Of a stretch of DNA of 64,000 nucleotides, positions 23,079 through 52,338 are shown piece by piece. The position numbers were made by a program, and so were the translations under genes. Source of the stretch: Eledone cirrhosa (Eukaryota); the NCBI GenBank assembly GCA_964016885.1, contig CAXHJY010001076.1:1-64000 (forward strand), read 5' to 3'. The notes beneath the pieces are model-generated. The model was not told where the DNA came from. It worked only from the letters and a program-made list of their open reading frames with translations, and did no database searches. Numbering within the stretch: the first letter of the stretch is position 1; each line of letters begins with the position of its first letter.

Positions 23079-24092
23079 ATGACCTTTTCGTCAGTCGGCG
23101 GCGGAAGTGGTGGCGGCGGAAGTGGTGGAGGTCACGTTGGCGGCGGAGGGGGCCGGGGTGTCGTGGTGCCGCCAGCGGCGGCTGTGCAGTTGCCGCCGCC
23201 AGTTCCGTTACCCAACGACTACGGAACCAACGTATACGCCGTCGTCACGGTCGCCGCCGCCGTCGTCGCCGTCGCCGCCGCCGTCGCCGCCGTCGCCACG
23301 TCGGCGACCGCCGCCGTCGTCGTCACGGCCACGTCGACGTCCGACGCTGCCGCCGCCGCCGCCGTTTCTACATCCACATCTACATCCTCCTCCTTATCAC
23401 CAGCAGCAGCAGCAGCAGCGTCACCAGGGCCAACAACGTCATTGCCATCGACGTCAACGAACGCCGCCGCCGCCGCCGCCTCGTCGCCGCCGCCATCCCA
23501 GCTCGTCTCCGCGGAAGGCGGCGTCACCGTCGCCACAGTGCTTATCCTTTTCTCGTTGGTGGCCGTCACCGAAAACGGGGCCGTGCTCTTCACCTTTTAC
23601 ATCTGCCGAGAACTTCTCACGCCCACCAACCTTTTCATACTTTCGCTAACCCTTTGTGACTTTTCCATTGCCCTTTTCGGCAACCCATTCGTTGTGATAT
23701 CGGGCCTAACCCGGGGCTGGTATTTCGGACATTTCGGCTGCGTTTTTTACGGATTCTTCATGACCTTTTTGGGTCTGACTTCGATCAGCCTGCTCACCGC
23801 CATCTCCGTTGATCGATACATCCTTATAGTGCATACAATGCGGGCGGTGACGATTGATTTTCGGGCGGCCACGTTCTCCGTGTTGGGTTGCGTACTTTAT
23901 GCGTTTTTCTGGTCGGCCGTCCCTCTCGTTGGTTGGAACCATTACGTACAGGAAGCGAGCGGCTTGGCTTGCAGTGTCCAGTGGCAAACGACAACCACCT
24001 CTGATACCAGTTATATTATACTGATGTTGGTATTTTGTCTCGCCATACCACTCATACTCATCGGATTTTCCTACATACAGATCTTCATCGCG
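23079..24092 (+). CDS. Opsin-family GPCR (xenopsin-like), 5' coding exon covering N-terminus and TM1-TM5, copy A
   Basis: ATG at 23079 and an open frame to the donor GCG|GTAAGT (intron starts 24093, phase 0). Motifs: TM1 ENG, LLTPTNLFILSLTLCD, GNP, WYFGxxGCVFYGFF (Cys110 and Tyr113 equivalents), SVDRY, PLVGWNHYVQEASGLACSVQW (Glu181 and Cys187 equivalents), TM5 IPLILIGFSY. GC/CpG-rich island in an AT-rich background. The xenopsin subfamily call is from motif recognition only; TM7 Lys296 is not visible. Confidence 0.85.
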
Positions 24093-24144
24093 GTAAGTGC
24101 CACTAACTCTTCTTTTATTATTATTATTATTATTATTATTATTG

Positions 24145-25222
24145 TTCTTTGAGTCTCAGTCATTGATGTTAGTTAACTAGAAAGTCTGTTGAAATGAATA
24201 TCAAGCCACCACCTGCAGCCTCAGATATTCAGGACGTATCGGAGGGTTCTTGCTGTTCCCAGCAAGCATGTTATTATTATTATTATTATTATTATTATTA
24301 TTATTATTGTTCTTTGAGTCTCAGTCATTGATGTTAGTTAACTAGAAAGTCTGTTGAAATGAATATCAAGCCACCACCTGCAGCCTCAGATATTCAGGAC
24401 GTATCGGAGGGTTCTTGCTGTTCCCAGCAAGCATGTTATTATTATTATTATTATTATTATTATTATTATTGTTCTTTGAGTCTCAGTCATTGATGTTAGT
24501 TAACTAGAAAGTCTGTTGAAATGAATATCAAGCCACCACCTGCAGCCTCAGATATTCAGGACGTATTGGAGGGTTCTTGCTGTTCCCAGCAAGCATGTTA
24601 TTATTATTATTATTATTATTATTACAGCTGCATTTATCTTGCTTTATGTTCATACCAGTTATCACCAAGTCACAACCAGTGACCTCAAGAGACAACAAGG
24701 TCCGCCATGTTCAAGAAACAACATACATACTCACACATGCATCTTTAGGTGTTTAGACTTGTGATGTACTTATATTGACAGAATCTTCCTTAGTATATGG
24801 GCAGTTCCCATTAGTACTATCTTTTGTATTTCTCCTATACGCGGGTTTCCTGGGATTTGCGATAAGTAATCATTAGATCCCTTATATTATTATTATTATT
24901 ACAGCTGCATTTATCTTGCTTTATGTTCATACCAGTTATCACCAAGTCACAACCAGTGACCTCAAGAGACAACAAGGTCCGCCATGTTCAAGAAACAACA
25001 TACATACTCACACATGCATCTTTAGGTGTTTAGACTTGTGATGTATTTATATTGACAGAATCTTCCTTAGTATATGGGCAGTTCCCATTAGTACTATCTT
25101 TTGTATGTCTCCTATACGCGGGTTTCCTGGGATTTGCGATAAGTAATCATTAGACCCCTTAGGTATCATTCCTAGAGCGCCTACAACCACTGGTATTCTT
25201 TTAGCTCTCAATTTCCACAATT
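24145..25222 (-). mobile_element. Stacked R4/Dong-type 3' ends in (TAA)n: three copies of one family (24145-24598) and two of a second (24624-25222)
   Basis: The first family matches the 3' end of 25960-26452. The second encodes RIPVVVGALGMIPK...IQKIVLMGTAHILRKIL. Each copy is bounded by TTA repeats. Confidence 0.7.
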
Positions 25223-49289: not shown

Positions 49290-51365
49290 TTTGTTTTATA
49301 TCAACTTCTACACCGCAACAGCAGTTCGTGAAAATCTTATATGAGGAGGGCAGCGGTTGTGGAGCAAGCGGGGGTGTTTTATGAGGTTTTTATCGTTACC
49401 AAACACGGGGCCCGCTACCAGGAAAGAGGGGCCACCATTGGCGGCACATACAAAAACAGCGGCACATATAATAAGGAGGTATTGGATGTTTATATTAATC
49501 TTATATGAGGAGGGCAGAGGTGACGGAGAAAGCGGCCTAGTTTTATGAGGTTTTCGTGTTTACCAACCACGGGCTTGCGGGCCACGTTTGGCGGCACAAT
49601 CAGAAACAGCGGCACATACAACACGGAGGTATTGGATGTTTACATTAATCTTGTTTGAGGAGGGCAGAGGTGGCGGAGAAAGCGGCGTAATTTTATGAGG
49701 TCTTCGTGTTTACCAACCACGGGCTTGCGGCCACGTTTGGCGGCACATACAGAAACAGCGGCAGATACAACACAAGCGGAGACATTGGATGTTTACATCA
49801 ACTTCTATAACACAACAGTTCTTCGAAACCTTAACTGAGGAGGGTCGAAGTCGGCAGAAGAGAAAGCGGCCTAGTTTTATGAGGTTTTCGTGTTTACCAA
49901 CCACGGGCTTGCGGCCACGTTTGGCGGCACATACAGAAACAGCGGCAGATACAACACAAGCGGAGACATTGGATGTTTACATCAACTTCTATAACACAAC
50001 AGTTCTTCGAAACCTTAACTGAGGAGGGTCGAAGTCGGCAGAAGAGAAAGCGGCCTAGTTTTATGAGGTTTTCGTGTTTACCAACCACGGGTCTGCGGCC
50101 ACGTTTGGCGGCACATACAGAAACAGTTGCAGATACAACACAAGCGGAGACAATGGATGTTTACATCAACTTCTATAACACAACAGTTCTTCGAAACCTT
50201 ATCTGAGGAGGGTCGAAGTCGGCAGAAGAAGAAGCGGCCTAGTTTTATGAGGTTTTCGCCGTTACCAGGCACGGAGCGGCCACGTTTGGCGGCACATACA
50301 GAAACAGTTGCAGATACAACACACGCGGAGACATTGGATGTTTACATCAACTTCTATAACACAACAGTTCTTCGAAACCTTATCTGAGGAGGGTCGAAGT
50401 CGGCAGAAGAAGAAGCGGCCTAGTTTTATGAGGTTTTCGCCGTTACCAGGCACGGAGCGGCCACGTTTGGCGGCACATACAGAAACAGTTGCAGATACAA
50501 CACAAGCGGAGACATTGGATGTTTACATCAACTTCTATAACACAACAGTTCTTCGAAACCTTATCTGAGGAGGGTCGAAGTCGGCAGAAGAAGAAGCGGC
50601 CTAGTTTTATGAGGTTTTCGCCGTTACCAGGCACGGAGCGGCCACGTTTGGCGGCACATACAGAAACAGTTGCAGATACAACACAAGCGGAGACATTGGA
50701 TGTTTACATCAACTTCTATAACACAACAGTTCTTCGAAACCTTATCTGAGGAGGGTCGAAGTCGGCAGAAGAAGAAGCGGCCTAGTTTTATGAGGTTTTC
50801 GCCGTTACCAGGCACGGAGCGGCCACGTTTGGCGGCACATACACACAACAACAGTAACAGTAAATTTTTATATCAACTTCTACACAACAACAGTAGTTCT
50901 TCAAAACCTTATTTGAGGAGGGAAGCGGAGGAGGCCGCGTAGTCTTATGAGGTTTTCGGGGTTACCAACCACTGGGCCGCTATCGGGAAACGCGGCCACG
51001 TTTTTAGGGGGCACATACATACAACACAAGCAACGGAGGCATTGGATGTTTACATCAACTGCAACACGACAGTTCTAGAGCTTACCTGAGGTCGGCAGCG
51101 GCGGCGTTTTGTGAGGTTTTCGGGGGTTACCAACCACTGGGCCGCTACAGGGAAACGCGGCCACGTTTTGGGGGGGCCCATACGTACAACACAAGCGGCG
51201 GCGGTATTGGACGTTTACAGCAACTTCTACAGAACAACAGCCCTTCAAAAACTTATCCGAGGAAGGGCAGACGCGGCAGCAGCAGCAGCAGCAGCGGCGT
51301 CGTTGCGACCCACGGGACCGCGGCCACGCTTGGCGGCACATATAGGAGCGAGCGGAGATATTGGT
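49290..51365. repeat. 181/184-bp tandem array (about 12 units including degenerate flanks) directly upstream of opsin exon B
   Basis: The marker ggccacgtttggcggcaca occurs at about 49581, 49729, 49913, 50097, 50278, 50459, 50640 and 50821, with degenerate versions at about 49430, 50994, 51159 and 51322. Confidence 0.9.
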
Positions 51366-52338
51366 GACGTCGTTGACGTCTGCGTTGGCGGCGGTGGTGG
51401 CGGCGGCGGCGGTGTCGTTATTGGTGGTGGTGGTGGTGGTGTCGGTGGTGTTGGTGACGGTGGAACCGGCGGCGGCGGCGTCGTTGGCTCCCCACACACA
51501 CCCCGTTGCTACCCGCAGCGTTGGCGGCGTTGGCGGCGTTGACGGCGTCGGTCGCGTGAGCGCAATCATTGGTGGCGTCTTCGGCGGCGGCGGCGTCGTC
51601 GACGGCGCGGCCGCGCTGCCGTCGCCGCCGCCGTCGTCAACGGCGACCGCCGCGGCGTCGTCGTCTGCAGCGTCAACAACGGCGGCCTCAACGCCAACAG
51701 CGAGCTCCGGCGGCGGCGGCGGCGGCGGCGTCGGCGAGGACGACGGCTTCCTATCGCGCGAAGTCGGCCTCACCGTGGCCAGCGTGCTGGCCGTGTTTTC
51801 GGCGGCGGCGGTGCTGTTGAACGGCGGGGTGATCGCCATGTTCGCCCTCCGGCGTCACCTCGTCACCCCGACCAACATCTTCATAGTGAACCTCACCCTT
51901 TGCGATTTCCTCATAGCCACCCTCGGCAACCCGTTCGCCATCGTCTCGGGCGTGATGCGGCGCTGGTATTTCGGCCGGAGCGGGTGCCTCTTGTACGGCT
52001 TCACAATGACCCTCCTCGGCCTCAATTCGATCACCTTGCTGACGGCGATCTCCCTAGATCGATACATACTGATCGTGCACACAATCCGAGCTGTGACCAT
52101 CAGTAAAAAAACTTCTCTTGTATCCGTCCTCGTCTGTCTTCTGTGGTCCTCATTTTGGGCGTTCATGCCCCTCCTAGGGTGGAACAATTACGTTACAGAG
52201 ATGAGTGGACTGGCCTGCAGTGTGGACTGGAGAGGACGAGATTCTAGTGACGTAGTTTACATTGTGCTCCTCTTGTTATTCTGCCTGGTCGGACCCATGC
52301 TGATTATAGGTTATTCCTACATAAGGATATTCTGGACA
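51364..52338 (+). CDS. Opsin-family GPCR (xenopsin-like), 5' coding exon covering N-terminus and TM1-TM5, copy B; start codon uncertain
   Basis: Open frame from a TAG at 51343-51345 to the donor ACA|GTGAGT (intron starts 52339, phase 0). Motifs: LVTPTNIFIVNLTLCD, GNP, WYFGRSGCLLYGF, SLDRY, PLLGWNNYVTEMSGLACSVDW, GPMLIIGYSY. Aligns without gaps to copy A over TM1-TM5 (about 115/197 identical by manual count). No in-frame ATG before TM1; GTG 51364 is taken as a provisional start. Confidence 0.8.

Follow-up and report, generated by a model that had tools for sequence, protein, structure and literature searches.

Two tandem first exons and a single downstream exon pair at a xenopsin locus of Eledone cirrhosa

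The first 64,000 nucleotides (the window) of Eledone cirrhosa contig CAXHJY010001076.1 (C1103 below) contain two exons, A and B, each predicted to encode the first five transmembrane helices (TM1-TM5) of a xenopsin. The contig is 125,344 bases long in an assembly of 3.0 Gb; its coordinates continue the numbering of the window, and positions above 64,000 lie outside it. The order on the plus strand is exon A, exon B, exon 2 and exon 3, with compatible phases (0/0/1). The original prediction, drawn from the window, had described A and B as intact, same-strand exons about 58% identical that stop at the same aligned donor and have no TM6/TM7 exon between them, and had proposed that both might splice to a shared TM6-TM7 block outside the window. 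Tandem first exons with equivalent donors and a single constant-exon set are present at this locus.

Exons A and B lie in stop-free frames (23013-24152 and 51346-52401), and each matches Pfam 7tm_1 positions 1-179 of 260 with an E value of about 1e-33. They are identical at 115 of 194 residues (59%), or at 58.4% of aligned TM1-TM5 columns (115/197), which upholds the earlier estimate. Both display a DRY motif, and the best PDB matches are Kumopsin1 and rhodopsins. The phase-0 donors are aligned, reading GCG/GTAAGT after 24092 in A and ACA/GTGAGT after 52338 in B. Exon A is 87.8% identical over 197 columns to P0001, a record named Octopus sinensis 'melanopsin-like, partial' that ends exactly at the exon A donor. 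Exon B is 65.5-67.5% identical to P0013 and P0004. The description of both exons as intact stood only in part: both frames are free of stops and exon A has a normal ATG at 23079, whereas exon B lacks an ATG before TM1.

The remainder of the receptor sits 52-55 kb past exon B on the same contig. A tblastn search with a gastropod opsin finds a TM6-TM7 segment at C1103:106907-107092 (E 1e-10). This segment belongs to exon 3, which is preceded by a long pyrimidine tract and AG, enters in phase 1, and carries WLPY, a TM7 lysine, NPLIY and NNQ; it matches 7tm_1 positions 211-260 at E 0.001, which alone falls below the curated cut-off. The lysine lies six residues before NPLIY and corresponds to the retinal-binding K296. 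The 88-nt exon 2 is absent among the tblastn matches listed with gastropod proteins and was recovered by scanning 24093-106900 for stretches between an AG and a GT whose upstream phase is 0 and downstream phase is 1; it is the clear top of 403 candidates (score 26.1, next 4.8). An entry named O. bimaculoides 'melanopsin-A, partial', P0010, opens with the same 29 residues (29/29); it begins exactly at exon 2 and runs on into exon 3, with 94% identity to exon 3 over a 66-aa core. The predicted introns span 79,860 bases from A to exon 2, 51,614 from B to exon 2 and 2,861 from exon 2 to exon 3. In two Octopus species the gene is stored as partial 'melanopsin' entries, P0001 corresponding to exon A and P0010 to exons 2 and 3. 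No full-length joined cephalopod xenopsin was returned by three protein searches or appears among the top matches of a representative search.

When exons 2 and 3 of this locus were themselves used as queries, neither strand of 24093-51345 gave a comparable sequence (best E values 3.5 and 0.71, respectively), and a six-frame scan of the 125-kb contig gives a single AK..WNP motif, at 107012. The one plus-strand NPxxY-like match between A and B, at 44296, was rejected as TM7; a stop follows two codons later. Copy number was searched in the whole assembly for the first exon and the exon 3 core, and within C1103 for exon 2. The first-exon search returns 35 matches, of which A and B are the only close copies; the other 33 stand at E 1e-11 or weaker, the next at 27% identity, and no third first exon was found in the contig or the 3.0-Gb genome search. 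The exon 3 core gives one match at E 2e-37, followed by one of 41% identity at E 2e-4, and the genome search of the assembly yields no second close copy of the TM6-TM7 exon. Because there is no 3' half between A and B and no second copy of exon 3, exons 2 and 3 are the sole completion for either first exon, unless the assembly misses a copy. The layout that had been proposed is thus borne out for the donors, the empty interval and the block beyond the window, and no gap that would mark the assembly break allowed for by the original prediction is present in this contig, which holds zero N. Of four sequencing runs from one study, X1-X3 yield contigs that agree with the assembly, free of indels, over exon 2, the first part of exon 3 and 51492-52352; these runs come from one sample that is possibly the assembly source, so they are not independent, and 51265-51491 was skipped as repeat. 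Run X4 has zero cover of exon 2, exon 3 and exon B, which has no bearing on expression.

Table 1. Features of the xenopsin locus on contig C1103 (window numbering; positions above 64,000 are given with the contig)
Feature	Position	Strand	Description
Exon A, xenopsin-2 type	23079..24092	+	ATG, low-complexity N-terminus of ~140 aa, TM1-TM5, phase-0 GT donor
Tandem array, ~181-bp units	49412..51360	+	Abuts the 5' end of exon B; 49429-50843 by Tandem Repeats Finder (TRF), degenerate last copy to about 51360 by eye
Exon B, xenopsin-1 type	51346..52338	+	Open frame with TM1-TM5, phase-0 GT donor, no in-frame ATG before TM1
Large intron, first part	52339..64000	+	Leads from the B donor to the shared exons outside the window
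Exon 2	C1103:103953-104040	+	88 nt; enters in phase 0, leaves in phase 1; encodes the third cytoplasmic loop and the first part of TM6
Exon 3	C1103:106902-109957	+	TM6 WxPY, TM7 lysine, NPxxY, NNQ, repeat-expanded tail; 1017 codons to stop

Several lines of sequence evidence assign both first exons to a xenopsin. A and B together with exon 3 have the class A G protein-coupled receptor fold with DRY and NPxxY. In the tree, support of 100/100 unites the cephalopod sequences with P0005-P0009 and with P0016, which is named as a xenopsin, to the exclusion of two fish opsins; the fish are the only outgroup, with no r-opsins or tetraopsins, and the tree taken alone is weak. By eye, exons 2 and 3 agree nearly letter for letter with the cephalopod xenopsins in a published alignment (PMC7553075, available part). 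The tripeptide after TM7, NNQ in exon 3, is of the NKQ-like pattern discussed for xenopsins in the accessible text of PMC5648526. Xenopsins are described, in the portions available of PMC5648526 and PMC7529461, as having two conserved introns of conserved phase; two coding introns are predicted here, with phase 0 after TM5 and phase 1 in TM6, a comparison of number and not of position. The break after TM5 is not diagnostic of xenopsins because it is common among unnamed opsin-like matches: of 152 examined, 73 have no later NPxxY, and 50 of these continue with Val. Either isoform would be a putative light-sensitive retinal pigment.

The opsin phylogeny that the original prediction had called for separates A and B into different cephalopod groups within the xenopsin clade. 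The tree uses 197 TM1-TM5 columns and 15 sequences (A, B, P0001-P0009 and P0013-P0016), leaving out P0010-P0012, in which the region is absent, and P0017-P0163. Exon A groups with P0001-P0003 (79/71) and exon B with P0004 and P0013 (87.7/91), and a forced clade of A, B and P0001 is rejected (approximately unbiased (AU) test, p=0.008). The unnamed P0002-P0004 and P0013 resemble, by eye, the decapodiform xeno2 and xeno1 types of the alignment in PMC7553075, as far as available. These groupings and the rejected clade suggest that the first-exon duplication is likely older than the split between octopods and squid/cuttlefish, with moderate node support.

Neither exon shows decay at the sequence level. 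Of 103 columns that do not vary among the four unnamed relatives (P0002-P0004, P0013), 89 are retained in A and likewise 89 in B; this count was made without P0001 and supersedes a first one (A 87/88, B 82/88) that was biased by P0001, the close relative of A. The B branch is 0.30 long, the A path 0.26 + 0.07, and between A and B dN is 0.35 with dS about 1.7, near saturation. Both copies are likely held by purifying selection.

The two exons agree more in the retinal pocket than elsewhere. Residue numbers here follow bovine rhodopsin anchors and not an alignment to the bovine sequence. Of 25 pocket-type sites, 22 carry the same residue in A and B, compared with 93 of the 172 other columns (Fisher p=0.001), and both exons have Tyr113 and Glu181. 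The three pocket differences between A and B are V/A at 94, A/S at 164 and M/L at 207; the V/A difference at 94 separates the two types without exception across the 7 cephalopod sequences. By sequence, the A and B forms would be similar pigments with similar G-protein coupling. Two photopigments from one gene, as originally envisaged, thus find little support if they are read as spectrally different, since A and B are so alike in the pocket.

The 5' end of exon B is unusual. No in-frame ATG lies upstream of TM1 in exon B, no ATG occurs in any plus-strand frame of 51048-51837, and the first in-frame Met, at 51838, falls at the end of TM1. An indel in the repeat-skipped 51265-51491 could not supply a start, because no plus-strand frame has an ATG in the wider interval. 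The stretch before TM1 is a GC-rich low-complexity frame. Since conserved TM1 sequence precedes the first Met, B would have been translated from further upstream at least until recently. Thirteen near-cognate start codons in good context are available, including a TTG at 51361 whose context has A in position -3 and G in position +4. A near-cognate codon, an upstream exon and recent silencing are all candidate explanations. The adjacent array of 181-bp units is locus-specific, all 10 of its genome matches falling within C1103:49412-51091, and may be an amplified piece of the B promoter or leader. Each unit has two ATGs, none of which reaches the exon B frame without a stop.

The two-first-exon design has precedents. 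In the available parts of a 2020 study of the cuttlefish Sepia officinalis (PMC7553075), xeno1 and xeno2 diverge over five transmembrane helices but share the last two unchanged. The authors explain this by duplication of part of the gene together with alternative splicing, which they propose without being able to date the duplication, and both xenopsins are detected in sub-adult optic lobes by reverse transcription-quantitative PCR. The identity of Sof_xeno1 and Sof_xeno2 begins at the residue where exon 2 begins in Eledone; inspected by eye, exon A is closer to xeno2 and exon B to xeno1. The Sepia transcript sequences in that source show both first halves joined to a common 3' part. The Sepia evidence consists of transcripts, whereas the present exon map comes from a single contig of an octopod that carries both types; B is without an ATG here. 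For Argonauta argo, the accessible parts of a 2021 preprint (10.1101/2021.11.08.467834) describe a locus of Aargo004635, Aargo004636 and Aargo004633 in which two xenopsin models in tandem are too short and a neighbouring model contributes two exons, and read the locus as splice variants from alternative promoters with two shared exons. Exon sharing was assumed there, and tissue specificity could not be confirmed by its authors; in the journal version (PMC9635652), as far as available, the xenopsin topic stands in the supplementary notes and the word is absent from the main text. The Argonauta model is the same as that considered here, tandem first halves with two shared exons, in another genome; the parts available mention neither a missing start codon nor an expanded tail.

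A literature search for opsins with an alternative first exon gave no paper on this design by title or abstract start. The original prediction, which knew of no such description for xenopsins, is nevertheless overtaken by these two sources: the design is already in print for cuttlefish and argonaut. What is added here is the exon layout along a single contig, a likely date for the duplication before octopods and decapodiforms separated, and the near-identical pockets; Argonauta Figures S11 and S13, with a xenopsin alignment and tree, may already show the dating and the exon B start. Other accounts, each as available, vary. Xenopsin1 and 2 are listed for Euprymna (PMC12240821), and xenopsin expression is described as generally low in octopod visual systems (10.64898/2026.07.15.738692). 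Functional data come from Limax xenopsin (PMC10729476) and Maritigrella (PMC6805122), for which sensitivity at about 475 nm with Go activation, and Gi coupling, are reported in the parts available. These belong to the same opsin class; P0016, named an Ambigolimax xenopsin, is 36-38% identical over TM1-TM5. Both P0016 and Haliotis P0005 have Glu at 113, whereas both Eledone exons have Tyr113 with Glu181. The spectra and coupling of tested xenopsins are not directly transferable.

Taken together, the locus is best read as one xenopsin gene with two alternative first exons and shared exons 2 and 3, likely producing both isoforms from separate first exons, to which a probability of about 0.72 is given; the support comes from DNA here and from transcripts in cuttlefish. 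UGT1A and the vertebrate clustered protocadherins likewise have tandem first exons that are each spliced to common constant exons. The Eledone locus differs from them in having only two variable exons, in its protein family, in its independent origin, and in a split that falls inside one seven-helix fold. Two mRNAs, A-2-3 and B-2-3, would be made, likely from separate promoters, the A transcript splicing across 79.9 kb and skipping B and the B transcript splicing across 51.6 kb. Both isoforms would be seven-helix pigments with a common TM6, retinal lysine, helix 8 and tail. The arrangement would have arisen by tandem duplication of exon 1 with its promoter, likely before octopods and squid/cuttlefish separated, and B in this species would start at a non-ATG codon or in an unseen upstream exon. 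The A/B difference would likely lie in place and time of expression; by analogy with other xenopsins, expression would be at a low level, in extraocular tissue or optic lobe, and signalling of Gi/Go type.

Several points weigh against the two-isoform gene. The Eledone cirrhosa splice junctions and promoters are predictions, the contig is only 125 kb in a possibly incomplete assembly, and support for the A-type clade is moderate only with 15 sequences and 197 columns. The full Sepia xeno2 was taken from a published transcriptome assembly (PMC7553075, part available), and the accessible parts of PMC10733189 and PMC10097855 count one cephalopod xenopsin. Pocket conservation is expected for any two working opsins and is compatible with a small spectral shift. 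A further objection concerns exon B: in its relatives P0004 and P0013 the open frame that encodes TM1 already contains a Met a short way ahead of that helix, no Octopus-named exon B protein is present among 8 protein-search matches, and recent silencing would have left no decay yet. The two-first-exon design could be ancestral and B recently silenced, its ATG lost beside the 181-bp array, with only A-2-3 giving a full pigment. The 790 nt without an ATG before the Met at the end of TM1 and the locus-specific array adjoining the B frame fit this account, which is nonetheless unlikely: B retains 331 codons without stop or frameshift and an intact donor, it equals A in invariant columns kept, including TM1 upstream of its first Met, and its branch is not longer than the path to A.

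The missing ATG would also be accounted for if A and B were internal, mutually exclusive exons behind one or more unseen upstream exons, one of which supplies the B start, the choice being made by splicing and not by promoter. Four YAG sites are indeed present in the 5' part of B, the best with 13 of 20 pyrimidines (AG ending 51518), but they are weaker acceptors than those of exon 2 (17/20) and exon 3. A has its own ATG, and relatives of both types carry a Met in the TM1 frame, making this arrangement very unlikely. Alternatively, A could be an orphan duplicate, or A and B two ordinary genes, one 3' half being missing from or collapsed in the assembly. The shortness of the contig leaves some room for this; the closeness of A to P0001 (88%), its ATG and its conserved columns argue otherwise, as do the lack of an N gap between A and B, the lack of a second exon 3, the Sepia transcripts of both types with an identical C-terminus and the same layout in Argonauta (PMC7553075 and 10.1101/2021.11.08.467834, as available). 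This last alternative is judged highly improbable.

The shared tail is greatly expanded. Exon 3 stays open for 1,017 codons compared with 178 residues past the same point in P0010, and the predicted A form (A-2-3) is 1,385 residues long. In-frame repeats bring the tail to about 1,000 residues, far longer than in P0010-P0012; conserved blocks are pushed apart by insertions and by tandem arrays whose periods (81, 51 and 72) are each divisible by three. Arrays occupy C1103:107713-109574 (L028:5214-7075), with an 81-bp unit repeated 7.6 times and Gly-rich 51/72-bp units, and about 950 residues follow helix 8. A 107-bp tandem array of at least 5.9 copies makes up the final codons and continues across the stop into the 3' untranslated region (C1103:109881 onward; L028:7382-8001, probably further). 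The protein ends in T-S-V here, T-C-V in P0010 and T-G-V in P0012, a T-x-V end that resembles the class I PDZ-binding motif.

Sequence at this xenopsin locus has often been amplified in tandem. Two arrays, with 3.1 copies of a 165-bp unit and 2 copies of a 277-bp unit, occupy window positions 24115-25161, starting about 20 bases past the exon A donor. Identical spurious matches 3,591 bases apart, at C1103 about 65500-65900 and 69100-69500 (L021), suggest a 3.6-kb tandem duplication inside the large intron. Right after exon B, a 205-aa frame at 52402-53019 with a zf-RVT match (E 3e-6) is a fragment of a LINE-type (long interspersed nuclear element) retrotransposon. Frames at 29412-30116, 32014-32454, 59439-60857 and 62789-63400 look retroelement-like by eye and have no Pfam match.

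Regulation is likelier than colour as the difference between the two forms, because the pocket residues are nearly identical and the two forms have the third loop, TM6, TM7 and the tail in common. Most likely, then, the duplicate persists for separate regulation. Coupling to Gi/Go is likely by analogy with the Maritigrella and Limax xenopsins already cited (PMC6805122 and PMC10729476, available parts). It is quite unlikely that both isoforms are made here, B from a non-AUG start, and that the differences at 94, 164 and 207 give two absorption peaks from one gene; if true, this would provide wavelength sensing outside the single-rhodopsin cephalopod retina, kept since before the octopod/squid split. 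The missing exon B ATG and the tail of about 1,000 residues are oddities of which no mention was found in the available parts of related papers. Surveys count one cephalopod xenopsin and databases list partial 'melanopsin' pieces, so that a second N-terminal half can easily be overlooked.

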